Virus record (IMG/VR): IMGVR_UViG_3300028833_000075
Coordinates: 1 to 64,000 of that record
Source: a virus
Lineage: Duplodnaviria > Caudoviricetes
DNA: 64,000 nt
Reading direction: 5' to 3' (one strand)
Each line of letters starts with the position of its first letter. The stretch's first letter is position 1. The notes under the pieces were generated by a model. The model did no database searches and had not been told where the DNA came from. It saw nothing but the letters and a program-made list of their open reading frames with translations. A program made the position numbers and the translations under genes. Shown here piece by piece: positions 972-53,563 of the stretch.

Positions 972-3900
972 TTTCAAATATGCTGACAAGCAAAAATATT
1001 TAGATTTCATAGAAGACTATTCTAACGCATCAAATGCTGCGACTGGCAGTAAGGTAGATGCAAATGCAAACGTAGAAAAGAAAACCGTTGCAACGCTGGC
1101 CGGAGAAATCTATAAAAAAGAAGGTATAGGAATGAATCGGCTGGCTATGCAGCAGAGACTGACTGAATTATATGGAAAAGAACTGGCAGATCAATATATC
1201 GAAGATCTCGATAAACATAGAATCTACAGACACGATGAGACATGCGTAGTTGGAACCCCTTATTGCGCTTCGATCACAATGTATCCGTTCTTATTGCATG
1301 GTCTCAAGAAACTTGGCGGATCGTCAACCGCACCGCATAATCTAAGATCTTTCTTAGGTTCTTTCATTAATCTGGCTTATGCGGCAGCAACAGAATTGGC
1401 GGGCGCAATAGCAACGCCTGAGTTCCTTCCCTATATGGATTATTTCATCCGTAAGGAATACGGTGACGATTATTACACGCATGCTGATGATATCGTAGAC
1501 CTCTCTAAAAACAAGAGGACTATTGATAAAGTAATAACAGACGGCTTTGAACAAGTTGTATACTGTCTTAATCAGCCTGCAGGGGCTCGGAACTCGATGG
1601 GTTCCCTTTTACGGTAACGTAATTGCAAAAAACGTGGTGAACTTACAAATGTAAGGTGTCGCATTATGCGGCTAACGGTAGAAGCTAAGTATTATGTAAG
1701 AGTATTGTATAATAAATAAAGAAAGGAGGACACTTATGCCAGCTCCATTGATTGATATTACTGGTTTAAGATACAGTAAGTTGTTCGTAAAGAAACGAGT
1801 TGAAGATTATATATCTCCAAGTGGAATAAGGTTTTCACAATGGTTATGTCAATGTGACTGTGGTAATGAAACAATTGCAAGAAAAACACATCTAACAGAT
1901 GGTACAAAAACAAGTTGCGGTTGTGAAGCTAGAAGACTAACGTCTGAAAGATCTATGAAAGACCTAACAGGACAACGTTTTCATATGTTGGTTGCAAAAG
2001 AAATTACCGACCCAATGAAAAAAGAATATTGTAAACTACATAATATTCCTTTATTCGAAATAAGATATGATGAAAATATAGAAGAATCAATCAATACAAT
2101 ACTTAATGAAATATATGCTAATACCGTGCCAAGTTCTGAATAATCAGAAAAGGTGTAACGACTAGGTGTAAACCGTACACGACCGGTGAAATTCCGGCGT
2201 GGAAGTGCCACGCCCCTAGAAATAGGGTGAAGAGATAGTCTAAGCCGCTAATAAATATCGGGAAACCGACGGTAGTAACTGATCAATCAATTTTCTGGAA
2301 CATTGCTTATTTTGATAAGTATTATTTCAACGGTATGTTTGAAGATTTCGTGTTCCCCGATGGAGACACAATGAAATGGGAATCTGTATCATGGCTGCAA
2401 AAACGCTTTATGACATGGTTCAACGAAGAACGCCGTCGTGCAGTCATAACGTTCCCGGTAGAAACTATGAACCTTCTTGATGACGGAGAAAAGTATCTCG
2501 ATCAGGAATGGGCTGATTTTGCAGCTGAGATGTGGAGTAAAGGTCATTCATTCTTTATGTACCGTTCGGACAATGTTGACAGTCTTGCTTCGTGTTGCCG
2601 TCTCAGAAATGAAATTGAAGATAACCAATTCTCTTACACGCTTGGAGCTGGTGGTGTGTCTACTGGCTCTAAATGTGTAATTACAATGAATCTGAATCGT
2701 ATTGTTCAAGACAAATATAACGAATTGAATGAAGCTCATTTAATTTCTGATTTCGATTCTTTAATTATGAAAATCAATGAAGCAGTTGACGAACAGGTAA
2801 CAAGAATCCATAAATACTTAACTGCTTTTAATACGATTCTCGAAGACAGAAGAAAAGCTGGATTAATTCCGCTTTATGATGCTGGATTCGTATCTCCAGA
2901 ACGCCAGTATTTAACAGTTGGCATCAACGGCGGAGTAGAAGCAGCAGAGTTTCTCGGCTGCGATATTAAACCAACGGATGAACGCTACGAGAAATTTATG
3001 AATAACGTTCTGAAAACAATCTACGAAGCTAACAAGCGAGACAGGACTCATAAGCTGATGTTTAACACGGAGTTTGTGCCTAGCCTTTTTAGTGGGCACG
3101 TTAAATCTTCTCTAATTGACTTGGAACTCCCAATGGGACAACAAGGGGCAAGCGTAATGGTAGCCTGAACGACTAAATGAGAAGACGCAGAAATGCGAAG
3201 CGATAGTCTGAACTGCATGGTAACATGCAGAGAAGCGGTCGAGTGTAAAGACACTCTCGGAAGTACCGTTTCCGCCAATTGTAATGAGACATTCGAGAAA
3301 ATACGTAATGGAGAAATGCTACAGAAAGGAAGTGTAATTATGATCTGTAACATTTGCGGACGCTCAGACTCTGAATGTCATATTAGAAAAATAAAGAATA
3401 TGTATCTTTGTCCACGGCACACTACACAATACTATAGAAATGGATCTTTCAACGACAACACAATTTATCAACCTAACGAATATATAATATATGATGATTA
3501 TGCTGAAATAATCTTAAAAAATAAAGATTGCAAAGAAGTTGGAAGAGCTATTATTGATATTGACGATGTTGACAAGTGCAAAGAATATAAATGGCATATA
3601 AGAAAAAGTAATAACGCTCAATACGTTATCGCGTCAATCAAAGGTTCTCAAAATAAAAAGATTCATTTACATAGATTGATCATGAATTATGATGGCAAAT
3701 TAGATATAGATCACATCAACATGAACGGTCTAGATAATAGAAAAAAGAATTTAAGAATTGTAACTCACTCTGAAAATAAAGCAAATAATAAATTTATTGG
3801 AGTGAAACTTGTTCCATCTGGAAGATGGCAAGCATCTATTTGTCGAAACTATAAAACAATTTATATTGGAACTTTTGATTCAAAAGAAGATGCAATAAAA

Positions 3901-4436
3901 GCCCGTGAAGAATTTATAAAATCATTACAATTGGTCAGTTAAGTAACAGAATGGCAGAAAATCTTGGTGTCAAGCATGCCAAGTGGGATTCAGAAGATGG
4001 TTACAGAGTCCCACGCAAGTGTTACAACAGCTACTTCTATCTCGTAGAAGACCCAACTACAACTATTATCGACAAGTTTATTTTACACGGAAAGAAATTC
4101 ACACAGTACCTCGACGGCGGTTCTGCGCTGCATTGTAACCTTGATGAACATCTTACAAAAGCACAGTATCGCAAGCTGATGGATATCGCTATCCAAACTG
4201 GCTGCCCGTATTTTACTTTTAATGTGCCGAATACAGTCTGTAAGGACTGCGGACATATTTCAAAGATGCGGCTCAAAGCTTGTCCAAAATGCGGATCAGA
4301 AAATCTCGACTACGCAACTCGTGTGATTGGGTATCTGAAACTCGTCTCATCTTTCTCTGAACCGCGTCAGCAAGAAGAACACGAAAGATATTATGCAAAC
4401 CTTCCGGAAAACAACACAGGTGAACAAGATGCTTAA
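964..4436 (+). CDS. nrdD: anaerobic (class III) ribonucleoside-triphosphate reductase, three exons: 964-1594, 2282-3081, 3954-4436 (637 aa spliced)
   Basis: Splicing restores NQPAGARN-Y-QSIFWN and FNTEFVP-AENLG; finger-loop SCCRL, C-terminal CxxC/CxxC Zn site and glycyl-radical RVIGYL motif; no N-terminal ATP cone seen. Confidence 0.93.
1595..2281 (+). mobile_element. group I intron 1 in nrdD (687 nt)
   Basis: Exon ends in U with P1 pairing GGAACU/GGUUCC; core elements GUAACGACUA (~2155) and AGAUAGUCUA (~2233); terminal G at 2281; removal restores the frame. Confidence 0.9.
1736..2143 (+). pseudogene. intron-encoded homing endonuclease remnant, probably internally deleted
   Basis: DLTGQRF / WLCQCDCG / SCGC repeat units joined directly to a KKEYCKLHNIPLFEIRY C-terminus; no central nuclease core seen; own RBS and TATAAT. 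Confidence 0.6.
3082..3953 (+). mobile_element. group I intron 2 in nrdD (872 nt)
   Basis: P1 GUGCCU/GGGCAC; core UGAACGACUA (~3166) and GAUAGUCUG (~3202); terminal G at 3953; removal gives VP-AENLG. Confidence 0.9.
3340..3942 (+). CDS. intron-encoded HNH homing endonuclease with C-terminal AP2 DNA-binding domain
   Basis: LHRLIM...IDHINMNGLDNRKKNLR HNH motif; GRWQASI...IGTFDSKEDAIKAR AP2 motif; ATG at 3340 after AAAGGA. Confidence 0.88.
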   Translation: MICNICGRSDSECHIRKIKNMYLCPRHTTQYYRNGSFNDNTIYQPNEYIIYDDYAEIILKNKDCKEVGRAIIDIDDVDKCKEYKWHIRKSNNAQYVIASIKGSQNKKIHLHRLIMNYDGKLDIDHINMNGLDNRKKNLRIVTHSENKANNKFIGVKLVPSGRWQASICRNYKTIYIGTFDSKEDAIKAREEFIKSLQLVS

Positions 4437-13228: not shown

Positions 13229-14344
13229 TCATTTGATTGTGTCCGTGACTGCTTTCAGATCTTCAAGCGGACTGCTTTGATACTGACTGCGAGTAAAATT
13301 GTAATCAGTATGTCCAATCAGCGCAGCTTTATCTCTATCGTCGCCTTGTGCATGCTTGAGTTTATCCGCATAAGTATGCCGGGCAGAATAAGGAACTTTA
13401 CCCCAGATTCCCAATGATTGAGTGATTGGCTTAAAAACAGATTCATTATAATAGTTTGTTGTCATTTTTCGAAATCCAACAAACTCTTTTGTGTGAATCC
13501 GATAACAGTACATTGGAAATAAGTAATCCGTTCCTTCTATATTAATACGCTCTAAAATATAATCAATTATCTGTTTTGGAATAACAACATTTCTGTCGAT
13601 CCCGGCTTCAGTTTTTATGCCTTCTGTAATATAGTAGACTGTTTCGTTGTCAATGACTGTTGATTTAACCTGATCTTTCTTAATTTCAAGAAATTCACCA
13701 GGCCGAAACCCAAGATAGCATTGGCAATATATATACTCAGCATAACGTGTTTTTCCAATTAAACCTTTTATTGCTTCAACTTCAGGCGGAGTCAGCGGGT
13801 GACGTTTTGTTGTTGTGTGTCTCCCTATATATAAGTTATCAGTAACATCCTTCTGAATGATGTTTGCATCTACAGCATATCCCCAGATAAGACCGGCTGT
13901 AACTTTCATTAATTGGTGCGTTCTCTTACCAGCTGGACATTTATCCATGCAAGCTTGCAATTCTGCAGCTGTAATAGTTTCAATTCGTCTGTATTTTAAA
14001 TCTGCAAAATGATTGTATGCTTGTTCGTAACCTAATAATGTTTTAGGTTTGACTCTGTTTTTATAGAATTCTTTCCATTTTTTAAAAACTTCATCTAACA
14101 TGGTAGTATTGACTTTAGGAGATTCACCGTTTAGCAATTTATTAAGTGCAGCTAATGCATCCTTTTTTGTCTTAAAGCCGCTAATTGTTTTCTTGATAGG
14201 AGATACATGTTTTCCTTCTTCTTTAGGCGGCTTCCATCCAACAACGATTTGAGCAATCCAGCATTTTCTGTCTGAGCGATAAAAGACAGATCCTTGTTTA
14301 TTTCCTCTTGACTTCGGTTTGCCCATTATTTGTGCTCCTCTCAT
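13229..14344 (-). CDS. int: tyrosine integrase
   Basis: N-terminal arm-binding region; GFRPGE, IKTEAG, YSARHTY, IGHTD...QY catalytic motifs. Confidence 0.95.
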   Translation of the reverse strand: MRGAQIMGKPKSRGNKQGSVFYRSDRKCWIAQIVVGWKPPKEEGKHVSPIKKTISGFKTKKDALAALNKLLNGESPKVNTTMLDEVFKKWKEFYKNRVKPKTLLGYEQAYNHFADLKYRRIETITAAELQACMDKCPAGKRTHQLMKVTAGLIWGYAVDANIIQKDVTDNLYIGRHTTTKRHPLTPPEVEAIKGLIGKTRYAEYIYCQCYLGFRPGEFLEIKKDQVKSTVIDNETVYYITEGIKTEAGIDRNVVIPKQIIDYILERINIEGTDYLFPMYCYRIHTKEFVGFRKMTTNYYNESVFKPITQSLGIWGKVPYSARHTYADKLKHAQGDDRDKAALIGHTDYNFTRSQYQSSPLEDLKAVTDTIK

Positions 14345-21239: not shown

Positions 21240-21698
21240 ATGAAGTTAACTAATATTTTCAAAAGATTCGGTGAATGGGTTAAGGAACTATTTTCAAAGA
21301 AATTTAAATCAACAGAACAGATATATTGGGTTAACCACATCCATGACGAATATGTGAATGCTTCACAAAAATCCGTCGGAATGTATGCCAATGTTCACGG
21401 ATTTGAAGGGCTAAACGATGATGGCAGCTGGACTTACTGGGTCGGTATTGATACACGGTTTATTGGTATTCGCGTTGCAGATATCGTAATCCGGTGTAAG
21501 AATAAGAGTACCTATGATCGTTGGATTTACCAAGCAACTCACGATCTAAACTCCATGCCAAGTGCTGTGCGAAACGATCCTAATCTTTACTGCCGTCTTG
21601 GAGACGATGTTGAAATTGATTTCAAGTTCCGCTGGGGCGACGAAGAGAAACATTTCAACGTAAGGTTCAGTGGCGATAGATATGCCGAAGAAAGGTAA
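21240..21698 (+). CDS. hypothetical protein
   Basis: AAGGAGG RBS before ATG 21240; 152 aa. Confidence 0.65.
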   Translation: MKLTNIFKRFGEWVKELFSKKFKSTEQIYWVNHIHDEYVNASQKSVGMYANVHGFEGLNDDGSWTYWVGIDTRFIGIRVADIVIRCKNKSTYDRWIYQATHDLNSMPSAVRNDPNLYCRLGDDVEIDFKFRWGDEEKHFNVRFSGDRYAEER

Positions 21699-21729
21699 CT
21701 CGCTGTATTACACACCATTTAATGAGTAC

Positions 21730-21885
21730 AAAAAAAAGAAGCCTTTCGGCTTCAATCCTGTCTGGGTAGTGGCCTTCCGGTCGGCTCGGTGTTGCACTGC
21801 TCCATCAGGGGCGCACCCCATAATCTTGCTTCGACAATCATGTTAGGTCTGAAGAGGGATGTTCCATCTGACCTTCACTCCGACA
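21730..21885 (-). ncRNA. stand-alone structured small RNA, ~155 nt, possibly 6S-like
   Basis: TTGCTT-17 bp-(TG)TATCAT promoter at 21919-21891; GC-rich self-complementary body; GAAGCC-GAAA-GGCTTC-U8 terminator; no credible ORF. Confidence 0.6.
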
Positions 21886-22084
21886 CAAAGATGATACCAC
21901 AAAACAAACAAGCAAGCAACTGAAAGTTGCTGCTTTATAAAGTAATGCCGGGCGATAGCAACCAAGAGTTTATTTTTAATACTAACATGATGATACCAAA
22001 AGATAAAGATGTTGAAGATTTTCTAAAAGATCTTGCAGAAAAAGAAAACATCAAATTGGACAAAGCCTCTTAAAGGAGTTATAC

Positions 22085-22453
22085 ATGACGAAAGACTTAG
22101 AACTACTTCAAGAATGGAAACAACGGTTAGGACTTCAGAACTGGCAGATAACATTAACCGACAATGTTGATCCTGAAGATATGACAGTCAAAGACGCAAT
22201 GGGCTGCACAAGCTATCAGGAAGTCATGAGAACAGCTTCTATTCAGATTATTAATCCTGAAAAGATCGAAGAAACACTCAGACCATTTGATTATGAAGAG
22301 ACACTTGTACATGAATTGCTTCATTTAAAACTTGGTCTTCTTGAACGAGGTACTGACTGGGACAACAAACTTCAATTGAGAGTTCTTCATATGATTATTG
22401 ACGATCTTGCTCGTGCATTAGTCGACGCAAAAAGAAATGGAGGATCCAAATGA
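22085..22453 (+). CDS. HExxH zinc-metallopeptidase-like protein
   Basis: ETLVHELLHL motif. Confidence 0.65.
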   Translation: MTKDLELLQEWKQRLGLQNWQITLTDNVDPEDMTVKDAMGCTSYQEVMRTASIQIINPEKIEETLRPFDYEETLVHELLHLKLGLLERGTDWDNKLQLRVLHMIIDDLARALVDAKRNGGSK

Positions 22454-23682: not shown

Positions 23683-24873
23683 ATGGATCTTAAAATTTTT
23701 ACGGATAATATTGAGGATGCTGCACTATTTCAAATACACAATCTTCTTGCTCAGCCTGTATTCTCTGAATGCAAAGTACGTATTATGCCAGATGTCCACG
23801 CAGGAGCTGGATGTGTAATAGGGTTTACTGCAGACCTTGGAGATAAAGTAATTCCCAACGTAGTCGGAGTAGATATTGGTTGCGGAATGTTGACAGTATC
23901 GCTTGGAGATAGAGATATTGACTTTAATAAATTAGATTCTGTTATTAGAAATAAAGTTCCTTCTGGATTGAACGTACATGAAAGAGATCTTCTACCGTTT
24001 CACGAAATGTATGATTTGATTTGTTATGATAAACTGAAGAATCTTGATTGGCTTGAAAGAAGTCTTGGAACTTTGGGCGGCGGAAATCACTTCATCGAAA
24101 TAGATCAAGGAGACGACGGTTGTAAGTATCTCGTAATCCATACCGGAAGCAGAAACCTGGGAAAACAGGTTGCGGACTATTATCAGTCTATCGCAATTAA
24201 ACGAATTAATAATAATAAGGAAGAACTGAAAAATAAAATTAATCAAATAATCCGAGACTACAAAGAGCAGGGCCGAGAAAAAGAAATTGAACAGGCAATC
24301 AAAGAAATCCGAAAATCATTTTCTAATGTAGAAAAGATGCCAAATGAACTATGCTATCTGGAAGGTCAGGACAGGCTGAACTATCTTCATGACATGGAAA
24401 TATGCCAGAAATTTGCAATTCGAAATAGAGCGACAATCGCTACAATTATCTGCAAATTGATGGCATGGCCAAGCTCTGATCATTTTGAAACAATTCATAA
24501 TTATATTGACATTGAGTCAAATATTATTCGCAAAGGAGCTATCTCTGCAGAAAAAGGCAAGAAGGTTATCATCCCGATTAATATGCGGGACGGCTGTATT
24601 ATCGGGATCGGCAAAGGCAACGAAGACTGGAATTTTTCTGCTCCGCACGGAGCTGGTCGGATTATGTCACGAATAGAAGCTAAAAAGAAAATTCCGTTGG
24701 AAGAATACAGGAATTCAATGACTGGAATCTTTACAACTTCTGTTTCTGAAGACACGTTGGATGAATGCCCTATGGCTTACAAACCAATGGATGAAATAAT
24801 CAATAACATAGAACCAACAATCGAAATACAGGAAATTATAAAACCTGTTTATAATTTTAAAGCAGGAAAATGA
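23683..24873 (+). CDS. rtcB: RtcB RNA ligase
   Basis: MPDVHAG, GVDIGCG, GTLGGGNHF, HTGSR, HGAGR and AYK motifs. Confidence 0.95.
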   Translation: MDLKIFTDNIEDAALFQIHNLLAQPVFSECKVRIMPDVHAGAGCVIGFTADLGDKVIPNVVGVDIGCGMLTVSLGDRDIDFNKLDSVIRNKVPSGLNVHERDLLPFHEMYDLICYDKLKNLDWLERSLGTLGGGNHFIEIDQGDDGCKYLVIHTGSRNLGKQVADYYQSIAIKRINNNKEELKNKINQIIRDYKEQGREKEIEQAIKEIRKSFSNVEKMPNELCYLEGQDRLNYLHDMEICQKFAIRNRATIATIICKLMAWPSSDHFETIHNYIDIESNIIRKGAISAEKGKKVIIPINMRDGCIIGIGKGNEDWNFSAPHGAGRIMSRIEAKKKIPLEEYRNSMTGIFTTSVSEDTLDECPMAYKPMDEIINNIEPTIEIQEIIKPVYNFKAGK

Positions 24874-50527: not shown

Positions 50528-53500
50528 TTATAATGTATGAACTACTTTCTTTTTTCTTTGCAGTGTTTTAGGTAAATCTCTTACTATGGTAATTGTTTCT
50601 TCTTCGTATGTCATTTCAAAAATAATTTGATGATTATCCTCTGTGGAAAAGATCTTTCTGTCATTTGGAAAAATATTTCCATGTGTAGGAGGAGAAGAAA
50701 TGAATTCAGATCCGCTTCTTATAGAATAAGTATTGATGCTTTCCGGTTTGGTATAAGAATATGAACCATATAAACCAAAATTATCGTTGTTGCCACTCTC
50801 ATCGCATCTTGTTACCTGAAACGTTGGGATTACATTATCAAGCGCAGAATATGTTATTCCGGTTATTGTGTCTGTTCCAAGCAAATTTGCTCCGTTGTAT
50901 GTTTCTAATGACAGCGTTCCAGTTCCATATTTAGACATGTAAAAACACCATGCAACTGGAATATAAATAGATACGCTTGATACGCCTGCTGCAACTGAAA
51001 CCCATTCGGTTTCCATATCCGGACCGAAACTGAGATTATACCTGTGCGTAAAATCCATTGAAGCAATATTAATTGTTAATAAGGCAGTATCTCCACCCGT
51101 ATATGCCGTTTTATCAAGTGAGCATGTACTTTTTGTGATATGATAGTGACCAACGACGCTAACATTGCTTGCAGGCATCGTGAATTGATTGTTCGTAATT
51201 GTAACTTCAGGCGTTGTTTCGTATCCATCAAACGCATAACTCATTGATGGAGTTTGGCTTAAAGTGATTGTGTCTCCATAATTAGCGGTATCCGACGAGG
51301 CCGTAACAGTTCCGCCGACAGCAGGATCTGCGCTTGTGGTTATATTATAATCTATTTTTTCGAAAGAAGCAGTAACAGTAGTGTTGGCAGCTGGCATTGT
51401 TATTGTAGTAGATGCAGTTGATGCGCTGCCAATTGTGCCTCCCGTTGTCGTCCATCCGGTAAAACGATAGCCTGTTCCAGCGTTTGCAGTAATAGTTATC
51501 ACATCGTCATAATACCCGGATGTTGAATCAAGTGTAACACTACCGCTTCCATTAGGAGAAACCTCTCCGGTTAATGTATAGGAAACATGAGTAAAGTTAG
51601 CAGTAACCGTTGCGTTTCCTGCGCCCATTGTAAACGTTGTTGGGTTGGTTGTTGTGCTGGATAAAGTACCTGATGTATTCGTCCAGTTTGCAAATGCATA
51701 TCCGGTTGCTGGAGTCGCTGTTAATTCTTTGGTAGATGTATATTGTATTGTGTCGCCTGCCGTAACAGTACCGCCGCCTGTTGGGGAAACGGTTGTTGTT
51801 AATGTATAGTTGTTTTTTGTGAAGTTCGCAGTAACTGTTGCATTTCCGGCACCTATTGTAAACGTTGTTGGATTTGCGGTCGTGCTGGATAATGTTCCTG
51901 CGGTTTTGGACCAACTGCTAAATGAATAACCACTGCTTGCTGTTGCCGTTAATTGTTTCTGGCTGTTGTAGTTCATAGAACCGCCAGCAGTTACGGTGCC
52001 TCCTCCGGTCGGAGAAACAGCAGTAGTTAAAGTATAACTGTTGATTGTAAAATTAGCAGTAACAGTTGCATTGCCGTTTGGCATCGTATATGTCGTTGAC
52101 GCGGCATTGGCATTAGCAAGTGTACCGCCACTTGATGTTGTCCAGTTTTTAAATGTATAACCAGTTGATGCGGTTGCAGAAATACTACACTTATCGTTAT
52201 AGTATTTCGTACCTCCGCCGGAAACAGTACCTCCTCCGGAAGGGCTGACCGATAGCGTTAATGTTCTCTGAATATGTGTGAAGTTTGCTGTAACGGTCGC
52301 ATTGGCATTCGGCATCGTATAAGTAGTTGATGCAGAATTAGCGTTAGCAATCGTACCTCCACTGGAAGTAGTCCAGTTTTTAAATGAATATCCGGTCGCG
52401 GCAGTTGCTGAAATAGTAACTTTATCATTATAATACTTCGTACCGCCTCCGGAAGTTGTACCGCCTCCGGAAGGACTAACTGCCAGCGTAAGTGTTCGTT
52501 GGACGTGTGTGAAATTAGCAGTAACAGTCGCATTGCCAGCACCCATTGTAAATGTCGTGGGATTCGTTGTTGTGCTGGATAGAGTACCGGCATTTTTACT
52601 CCAACTACTAAACGCGTATCCTGTGGAAGCCGTGGCTGTTAAGCTTTTTGTTGAACCGTAGTTCATAGATCCGCCAGCGGTAACGCTTCCTCCTCCGGAA
52701 GGGGAAACTGCAGTCGTCAAAGTATAGCTATTAATTTTAGCATTAGCTGTAACTGTAACGTTTCCAGCCGGCATCGTAAAGGTGGTGCTTGCTGAATTCG
52801 CGTTTCCAAACGTGCCACCGTTATTGGATGTCCAATTCTTAAATGTGTAGCCGGTCGATGCTGTTGCTGAAATATTGTTGGAAGAACCGTAAGATTTGCT
52901 GCCTCCGCCGCTTACGCTGGAAATGCCCGTTCCTTTTGCTACAGTAAGGGTATAACTGTTTGTTCCAAAATTTGCCGTAACGGTGGCCGCGCTGGTCCCC
53001 ATCGTGAATGTGGTAGGGTTTGAGGTTGTACTTGACAGCGTACCAGCGGTTTTACTCCAACTACTAAAGTGACGTCCTGTGCTCGGGGTAGCGGTTAAAC
53101 TCTTGGTCGAATTATAGCTCATTGCTCCACCAGCGGTCACGCTGCCATAACCGCTGGGGGAAACCGTGGTTGTTAAAGTCCATGTTTGGTTTGCGGTTTG
53201 CATTGTGACCGTTGAAGCATTCTGGTGAGCAAAGCCATTGCTTATAATGGCCCCGTCTCTTGCTACTGTGAGATAGATTTGCTTTCCAGCAAGAGCCGTC
53301 CCTCCGGAGCCAATGGTAAAATCGGTTGTGTACACACGACTGGAACCGTAAATATACAACGTCGGTGACAACGCCACCCTGTTGTTGCCTGACGAATCAC
53401 AAAGGTATAATGTAAACGTTCCGGTTTTACCATTGTTTTCTTTCCAGGATGGCTTATCTTTGAATGTAATTGTACCACTCGGGTATTCACCTGTTCCTAA

Positions 53501-53563
53501 CGAGATGCCTAATGAAGCAGGCCATTGGTATACGCCAGAAATGGAACCAGTCTTTGTTCCCAT
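50528..53563 (-). CDS. 1011-aa virion protein with ~10 InlB B-repeat (Listeria-Bacteroides/Flg_new-like) domains
   Basis: tandem LT..VSP.GGG.V.GGG...L.AT...GY.F..W...TTF.M...ATVTANF units. Confidence 0.8.
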   Translation of the reverse strand: MGTKTGSISGVYQWPASLGISLGTGEYPSGTITFKDKPSWKENNGKTGTFTLYLCDSSGNNRVALSPTLYIYGSSRVYTTDFTIGSGGTALAGKQIYLTVARDGAIISNGFAHQNASTVTMQTANQTWTLTTTVSPSGYGSVTAGGAMSYNSTKSLTATPSTGRHFSSWSKTAGTLSSTTSNPTTFTMGTSAATVTANFGTNSYTLTVAKGTGISSVSGGGSKSYGSSNNISATASTGYTFKNWTSNNGGTFGNANSASTTFTMPAGNVTVTANAKINSYTLTTAVSPSGGGSVTAGGSMNYGSTKSLTATASTGYAFSSWSKNAGTLSSTTTNPTTFTMGAGNATVTANFTHVQRTLTLAVSPSGGGTTSGGGTKYYNDKVTISATAATGYSFKNWTTSSGGTIANANSASTTYTMPNANATVTANFTHIQRTLTLSVSPSGGGTVSGGGTKYYNDKCSISATASTGYTFKNWTTSSGGTLANANAASTTYTMPNGNATVTANFTINSYTLTTAVSPTGGGTVTAGGSMNYNSQKQLTATASSGYSFSSWSKTAGTLSSTTANPTTFTIGAGNATVTANFTKNNYTLTTTVSPTGGGTVTAGDTIQYTSTKELTATPATGYAFANWTNTSGTLSSTTTNPTTFTMGAGNATVTANFTHVSYTLTGEVSPNGSGSVTLDSTSGYYDDVITITANAGTGYRFTGWTTTGGTIGSASTASTTITMPAANTTVTASFEKIDYNITTSADPAVGGTVTASSDTANYGDTITLSQTPSMSYAFDGYETTPEVTITNNQFTMPASNVSVVGHYHITKSTCSLDKTAYTGGDTALLTINIASMDFTHRYNLSFGPDMETEWVSVAAGVSSVSIYIPVAWCFYMSKYGTGTLSLETYNGANLLGTDTITGITYSALDNVIPTFQVTRCDESGNNDNFGLYGSYSYTKPESINTYSIRSGSEFISSPPTHGNIFPNDRKIFSTEDNHQIIFEMTYEEETITIVRDLPKTLQRKKKVVHTL

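Follow-up and report, generated by a model that had tools for sequence, protein, structure and literature searches.

A candidate RNA-only moron: a predicted gene for an RNA of about 155 nucleotides occurs as a promoter-to-terminator cassette in otherwise unrelated phages

What occupies the gap between two genes of a phage operon when the gap reads as a transcription unit on the opposite strand? The viral record analysed here is 150,578 bp long and has direct terminal repeats, and the window comprises its first 64 kb. The genes neighbouring the gap are all on the plus strand, and the gap is bounded by a 168-codon gene ending at position 21698 and a 122-codon gene beginning at 22085. A first-pass annotation had proposed that the minus strand of the gap contains an autonomous gene for a structured RNA, possibly related to 6S RNA, with an antitoxin or an anti-CRISPR RNA as the fallback identities. 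Phage-borne small RNAs are few, and most of those known are from phages of E. coli and Salmonella. Here we describe the anatomy of the candidate gene, its copies in other phages, its coding potential and its predicted fold, and we propose what the RNA may do.

The elements of a minus-strand transcription unit are in place at the locus (Table 1). Reading of the sequence upheld both the exact coordinates and the motifs of the proposed promoter, in which TTGCTT is separated by 17 bp from TATCAT with an extended TG. The terminator with a GAAA loop and eight uridines was listed by a consensus scan, and it is the cleanest of eight terminator-like sites within 6 kb and the best of those on the minus strand. 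The promoter of the window copy was not listed by the same scan because its −35 hexamer matches the consensus in only three of six positions. A three-way alignment (A1) with the copies from two other phage contigs, L008 and L078, showed that the −35 region is partly conserved and that both of these copies have a perfect TGgTATAAT at −10, compared to which the TATCAT of the window copy is weaker. In the window, the predicted RNA does not overlap any coding sequence and, as had been claimed, is antisense to every neighbouring gene. The claim that the body lacks an open reading frame led by a ribosome-binding site also held, since no such frame is conserved across the copies.

Table 1. Features of the RNA locus and its surroundings, in window coordinates
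Feature	Position	Strand	Basis or remark
Inserted segment relative to a close relative, replacing ~3.85 kb	21699..21955		Right junction placed only to ~21936-21962
3' remnant of a ~93-codon gene	21956..22073	+	Whole in the relative (L007:2709-2990); truncated here by the replacement
Terminator-like hairpin overlapping the −35 hexamer, just upstream	21914..21935	-	In inserted DNA; absent from L008 and L078
−35-like hexamer TTGCTT	21914..21919	-	3/6 relative to consensus; 17-nt spacer to −10; read from the sequence
Extended −10 box TGgTATCAT	21891..21899 (TG 21899-21898, TATCAT 21896-21891)	-	Sequence reading and alignment A1
Predicted transcript, ~152-157 nt	21730..21886	-	Start placed by inference at ~21884-21886, 5-7 nt past −10
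P1, pairing of the 5' end (21885-21876) with 21771-21759, closing the multi-branch junction	21759..21885	-	Probabilities 0.5-0.99, all three copies; RNAalifold
H1 hairpin, outer GGUC/GACC stem	21845..21874	-	Probability 0.75-0.99 in all copies; C/U difference between copies on a 1x1 mismatch
MEHPSSDLT 9-codon frame	21838-21867 (A2 columns 20-49)	-	GGAG 10 nt upstream of ATG
Central variable part, H2 and H3	21788..21842	-	Most differences between copies; fold varies by copy
H4, short hairpin (3 bp) immediately preceding the 3' strand of P1	21772..21785	-	Probability 0.83-0.95 in all copies
Intrinsic terminator GAAGCC-GAAA-GGCTTC + U8	21730..21753 (hairpin 21753-21738, T8 21737-21730)	-	Consensus scan, alignment A1, pair probability 1.00

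The copies of the locus in other phages delimit the gene. The viral contig collection was scanned with words of 17–20 nt taken from both ends and the middle of the RNA. The only true homologues were found in contigs IMGVR_UViG_3300032030_000433 (L008, 19.8 kb) and IMGVR_UViG_3300021255_001160 (L078, 8.1 kb), and the remaining matches were chance similarities in coding genes. All-against-all blastn identified a cassette of 173–196 nt, with 94–97% identity, as the sole DNA common to the 150-kb genome (G000), L008/L046 and L078, and the stop-to-stop frames within 4 kb on each side contained no other protein common to the three contexts. The conservation among the three copies starts in the promoter region, is solid from the −10 box onwards and stops at the T-run of the terminator. 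The mean column identity over the 157 columns of alignment A2 is 99%, and the RNA body stays 97% identical between contexts in which the neighbour genes are wholly different. A protein database search pointed to a fourth copy, located in yet another flank, through P0123, a JGI 'protein' of 63 residues that was called spuriously from the antisense strand of the RNA. Three copies were compared as DNA, and the fourth is known through this protein.

Searches of larger collections did not extend this set. A blastn comparison of the RNA locus with 50,697 phage records and 72,556 plasmids returned no match, nor did a BLAST search of 399 Clostridia genomes. Scans of genome contigs with an 18-mer and of metagenomes with a 20-mer yielded only chance matches and the L008 contig again; both words were drawn from the central hairpin, which is the most variable part of the RNA, so that variants of the L078 type would be missed. 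Covariance model R1 detected only this site in the 150-kb genome and nothing new there or in 65 further loci. The ribbon-helix-helix gene adjacent to the cassette in L008 was traced to 30 relatives by synteny, and the RNA follows it in none of them.

The cassette is an insertion relative to a closely related phage. Contig 3300032030_000045 encodes both flanking proteins, with 93% and 98% identity, but the cassette is absent anywhere in it, and ~3.85 kb of other genes are located between the two flanking genes where the window has the cassette. Homology to this relative extends to the stop codon at 21698 and is found again from ~21956–21965 onwards. Related phages are hyperplastic in this region. 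At the borders of the cassette, the shufflon site TTGCTGTTTAA is absent. The GC content of the RNA body is 55%, in agreement with the first-pass description of the body as GC-rich, compared to 37–40% in the flanks and 40% in the 150-kb genome, of which only 1.6% of 133-nt windows are equally GC-rich. The overall GC content is 56% in L008 and 52% in L078. Since the body resembles these carriers in composition and differs from its flanks, the composition points to an origin of the cassette in a higher-GC phage lineage, not to structure. The GC-rich island that hinted at a structured RNA is accounted for by foreign origin instead, which is a caution for annotation from sequence alone.

The inserted DNA can be compared with phage morons. 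Morons were defined on phages HK97 and HK022, and their hallmarks are extra DNA in comparison with related phages, a differing GC content, and a promoter and terminator of their own (PMC3594210). The cassette is located between two operon genes, is present here and absent at the same place in the close relative, and deviates from its surroundings in base composition. Its predicted extended −10 promoter and intrinsic terminator are conserved in three copies. By those hallmarks that can be read from DNA, these features make the cassette a moron, while its predicted product is RNA only. The cassette differs from classical morons, which carry a protein gene, in containing only a 155-nt RNA without a conserved frame, and it differs from a pure moron addition in having replaced ~3.85 kb.

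The differences between the copies also bear on whether the locus encodes a protein. The 29-codon frame starting with MIVEARL, which the first-pass annotation had named as the alternative product, is intact in the window and in L008, but it is interrupted by TAG at codon 8 in L078. A 1-nt deletion deduced for the fourth copy removes the ATG of this frame and exactly accounts for the end of P0123. The frame is broken in two copies and is therefore not the product. The 36-codon frame starting with MGCAPDG has lost its ATG in L078, and in the antisense frame all three L078 substitutions are non-synonymous. Among frames of more than 17 codons, none is preserved in every copy. The survivors in the three DNA copies are the nine-codon MEHPSSDLT frame and one frame of 17 codons that lacks a ribosome-binding site; neither has a convincing one.

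We consider it decidedly improbable that the locus is a micropeptide gene producing MEHPSSDLT or the peptide of another very short frame. The MEHPSSDLT frame is intact in all three copies and preceded by GGAG, and both substitutions that distinguish the window from L008 within it are synonymous (CCC/CCT and CTA/CTG). However, two synonymous changes are expected in about 1 in 16 cases by chance without selection, and both the ATG and the GGAG are enclosed by P1 and H1, the most stable of the predicted helices. A micropeptide would also leave 100 nt of perfectly conserved downstream sequence without explanation, and the longer frames are broken. The proposal of an autonomous RNA gene on the opposite strand is well supported, since the conserved block extends from promoter to terminator, occurs in unrelated phage contexts and contains no conserved frame. 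We conclude that the locus is a real, self-contained gene for a predicted RNA of ~155 bases without a conserved protein product.

The fold predicted for this RNA is branched. The minimum free energy of the window copy is −47.3 kcal/mol, with a z-score of −1.07 relative to dinucleotide shuffles (−0.96 for the opposite strand), so that neither strand of this copy is more stable than its shuffles, and the z-score of the L078 copy is −2.12. The minimum-energy, centroid and RNAalifold consensus folds are all multi-branched junctions closed by the paired ends of the molecule. The previously proposed pairing of the ends and the GGUC/GACC stem are retained in this model, as they are predicted with probabilities of 0.5–0.99 in all three copies. 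In contrast, the rod with an internal bubble into which these elements had been arranged is replaced by the junction, and the CUCUUCA/UGAUGGAG helix of the rod has a probability of about 0. The CAUGAU/AUUAUG hairpin, also part of the earlier model, has a probability of 0.9 in the window copy and is not predicted in those of L008 (0.15) and L078 (0.01).

The covariation analysis of homologues that the first-pass annotation had called for was performed using RNAalifold and identified no compensatory pairs among copies that are 95–99% identical, because the copies are too similar; the pairs of P1 are all invariant and show no covariation. The three L078 substitutions and the changes deduced for the fourth copy are located in the central part of the RNA, the latter in the H2 loop, the 5' strand of H2 and the H3 bulge. 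Five of the six variable columns are unpaired in the consensus fold although 62% of the columns are paired, a distribution with a chance probability of ~3% that is partly circular, as RNAalifold used the same sequences.

The branched fold is difficult to reconcile with the suggested relationship to 6S RNA. A 6S-like decoy would mimic an open promoter, sequester the sigma-A RNA polymerase and be released by the copying of a product RNA. The candidate is similar to 6S RNA (RF00013 and related models) in the order of its size, in the pairing of its 5' and 3' ends, and in standing alone with a sigma-A-type promoter, and a conserved host protein as the target would explain the same sequence in phages with 40% and 55% GC. 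However, a search of the whole window against Rfam 15, which had been recommended as a check, gave no hit at the gathering score, and over positions 21600–22100 at E up to 10 there were only two unrelated noise matches and no 6S RNA. Instead of a long, irregular rod interrupted by a central bubble, a four- or five-way junction is predicted, and the fold of the window copy is not significantly stable. We regard the 6S-like function as highly improbable. The identity as 6S RNA was rejected based on the lack of a covariance-model match and on the predicted shape. A limited literature search found no phage-borne 6S RNA.

Other known RNA classes were considered. Y RNA, including YrlA, was examined because an rtcB gene is located 1.8 kb from the RNA, and it was rejected: a TROVE (Ro) domain was not found in the 150-kb genome, while it was detected in control genomes, and there was no Rfam hit. 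The rtcB gene of the window (23683–24873, plus strand) encodes an RtcB tRNA-splicing ligase (PHROG 1075, E = 4e-129), has ~70% DNA identity to rtcB genes of large Bacillus phages, and does not travel with the cassette. ARAGORN identified no tRNA-like gene in the window. Neither the retron template RNAs nor the tRNA-shaped RNAs of this genome proved to be related to the cassette RNA. The fallback identity of an antitoxin RNA was abandoned because no toxin or other gene travels with the RNA; an antitoxin of type I or type III was rejected, as nothing but the cassette is shared between the carriers at the level of DNA or protein, and tandem repeats are lacking.

The other fallback identity, an anti-CRISPR RNA, belongs to a broader explanation in which the RNA counteracts host defence, either as a mimic of a CRISPR repeat or as a mimic of the RNA antitoxin of an abortive-infection system. 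Several unrelated phages carry the stand-alone promoter–RNA–terminator unit, as might be expected of such an RNA. RNA anti-CRISPRs, or solitary repeat units, which Camara-Wilpert et al. are said to have described in 2023, are likewise small stand-alone phage-borne RNAs with a promoter and terminator. Unlike in these, no CRISPR-repeat-like unit was detected in the cassette. The sole likeness is a 10-nt motif: the 3' part of the RNA, GGAUUGAAGC, resembles AUUGAAAC/G, the tag at the end of many type I and type III CRISPR repeats, in nine of ten positions of a post hoc match. However, half of this resemblance falls in the terminator stem. The CRISPR-DR families of Rfam gave no hit at the locus at E up to 10, and the RNA has no internal repeat. 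The anti-CRISPR proposal thus lacks support, and an anti-defence function of either kind is improbable.

The phages that carry the cassette differ in their gene content around it. The window phage encodes a tyrosine integrase with SAM-like and arm-DNA-binding domains (13229–14344, minus strand), which is only distantly related to that of L078 (21% identity). The genes of L078 include the tyrosine integrase, an HTH_3 (CI-type) repressor and a gene classed as holin-like from its sequence. The L078 integrase is 67% identical to that of an Acidaminococcaceae metagenome-assembled genome, and this is the sole hint of a host. In L008, a tail-fibre-like gene of 1,625 residues lies on one side of the cassette and an NlpC/P60 endolysin gene on the other. 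A tyrosine recombinase gene between these two (L008:3249-4195, plus strand) is frameshifted and lacks the catalytic C-terminus; a 57-codon ribbon-helix-helix frame (4003–4176) and then the RNA cassette take the place of the remainder of the recombinase. Judging from these genes, the carriers are temperate or integrase-bearing phages. Both neighbour genes oppose the RNA in the window and in L078, and in L008 the RNA is opposed by the tail and lysis genes. The holin-like membrane protein gene of L078 (L078:1435-1758, plus strand) starts ~55 nt from the RNA promoter, back to back with it. Since the holin-like gene runs in the opposite direction, late read-through transcripts of L078 would be fully complementary to the small RNA.

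Based on the conservation, composition and context of the cassette, a function of the RNA can be proposed. We favour, with somewhat more confidence than doubt, the interpretation that a small non-coding RNA is encoded by the cassette as a gene complete in itself, which spreads horizontally and amounts to an RNA-only phage 'moron'. The absence of compensatory pairs, the fold stability of the window copy, which does not exceed that of shuffles, the lack of a complementary target in the phage sequences and the weaker −10 box of the window copy speak against this reading. The host sigma-A RNA polymerase would transcribe the RNA independently of the surrounding phage operon and antisense to it, probably also in the lysogen. 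The RNA of ~155 nt would fold into a junction closed by its paired ends and may act in trans on an RNA or protein of the host or of a competing phage. Its working surface is likely to be within the 3' half that is invariant in all four copies (columns 78–128), which includes CUGAUGGAGCAGUGCAACACCGAG and the H4 loop. No complementary target above chance was found in the three phage sequences, where the longest matches were 10–16 nt. As neither a complementary site nor a partner gene came to light, the host or other phages should contain the target; it is likely to be something conserved, because the sequence is the same in carriers of 40% and 55% GC. We speculate that the RNA-only module may spread by binding and neutralising a broadly conserved host protein or defence component, acting as a decoy and not as a base-pairing regulator. 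This would explain why phages with ~40% and ~55% GC keep 155 nt almost unchanged, but we consider it unlikely.

Prophage small RNAs that act in trans are an established kind, and roles in exclusion or host control are known for some of them (PMC7067206; PMC12197685). Those with exclusion or host-control roles are the nearest established kind to the cassette RNA. STnc6030 of phage BTP1 is a functional prophage antisense RNA longer than 700 nt, which overlaps the genes it acts on (PMC7067206). Like STnc6030 and other phage and prophage small RNAs, the cassette RNA is a predicted non-coding transcript from its own promoter in a temperate phage, directed against late or accessory genes, and its expression in the lysogen is plausible. 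It has no sequence or Rfam relation to STnc6030 or to the RNAs reviewed in PMC12197685, and, unlike STnc6030, it overlaps no gene in the window and moves between unrelated phages.

The orientation of the cassette relative to its neighbours raises the alternative of a cis-acting antisense or transcription-interference element, one that damps or insulates read-through of the operon, for example into the holin gene of L078. The opposition of the unit to both neighbours in the window and in L078 and to the tail and lysis genes in L008, the back-to-back arrangement of the L078 promoter with the holin start, and the precedent of STnc6030 as a functional prophage antisense RNA (PMC7067206) are consistent with such a role. 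However, the neighbour genes differ completely across the three contexts, and therefore an antisense role specific to a gene cannot be the conserved feature. In the window, the RNA lies clear of coding sequences, and pure interference would not require a body that is 97% identical. We therefore consider a cis-acting role to have a low probability.

It is quite unlikely that the cassette is a non-functional passenger, that is, recently copied donor DNA that includes a promoter and a terminator by coincidence. The known copies number only four, and this small number also speaks against the mobile RNA gene that we favour, as the near-identity of the copies could reflect recent spread rather than selection. 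The copies are all very similar and apparently come from a few related metagenomes, neither the 399 Clostridia genomes nor the collections of phages and plasmids yielded a copy, and the plasticity of the region in related phages would accommodate a passenger. However, the sequence shared by three independent contexts is confined to the promoter-to-terminator unit, and random DNA would be unlikely to end there three times. Furthermore, the substitutions avoid the predicted helices.

As a mobile RNA gene, the cassette would be a clear-cut example of a moron made up of an RNA gene only, transferred between unrelated uncultured phages as a unit from promoter to terminator. The cassette represents a new family of predicted small RNAs. 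If expressed, the RNA would be a new family for Rfam and a candidate for lysogenic conversion, exclusion or counter-defence in a gut or rumen community.

Three further observations were made in the window and in the loci used for comparison. The virion-gene block of the window contains a gene (50528–53563, minus strand) whose 1,011-residue product has nine divergent InlB B-repeat (Flg_new_2) domains. A 277-codon frame at 2335–3168 (plus strand) matches only positions 182–415 of the 562 positions of the NrdD model (anaerobic ribonucleotide reductase), and the gene may be split or interrupted. Among the relatives of the L008 ribbon-helix-helix protein (L048–L074), many gut-phage loci have a conserved GTGTGTAACGATACGTAAC-like stretch just past the last codons of the gene, which may be an operator or a regulatory site that they have in common.
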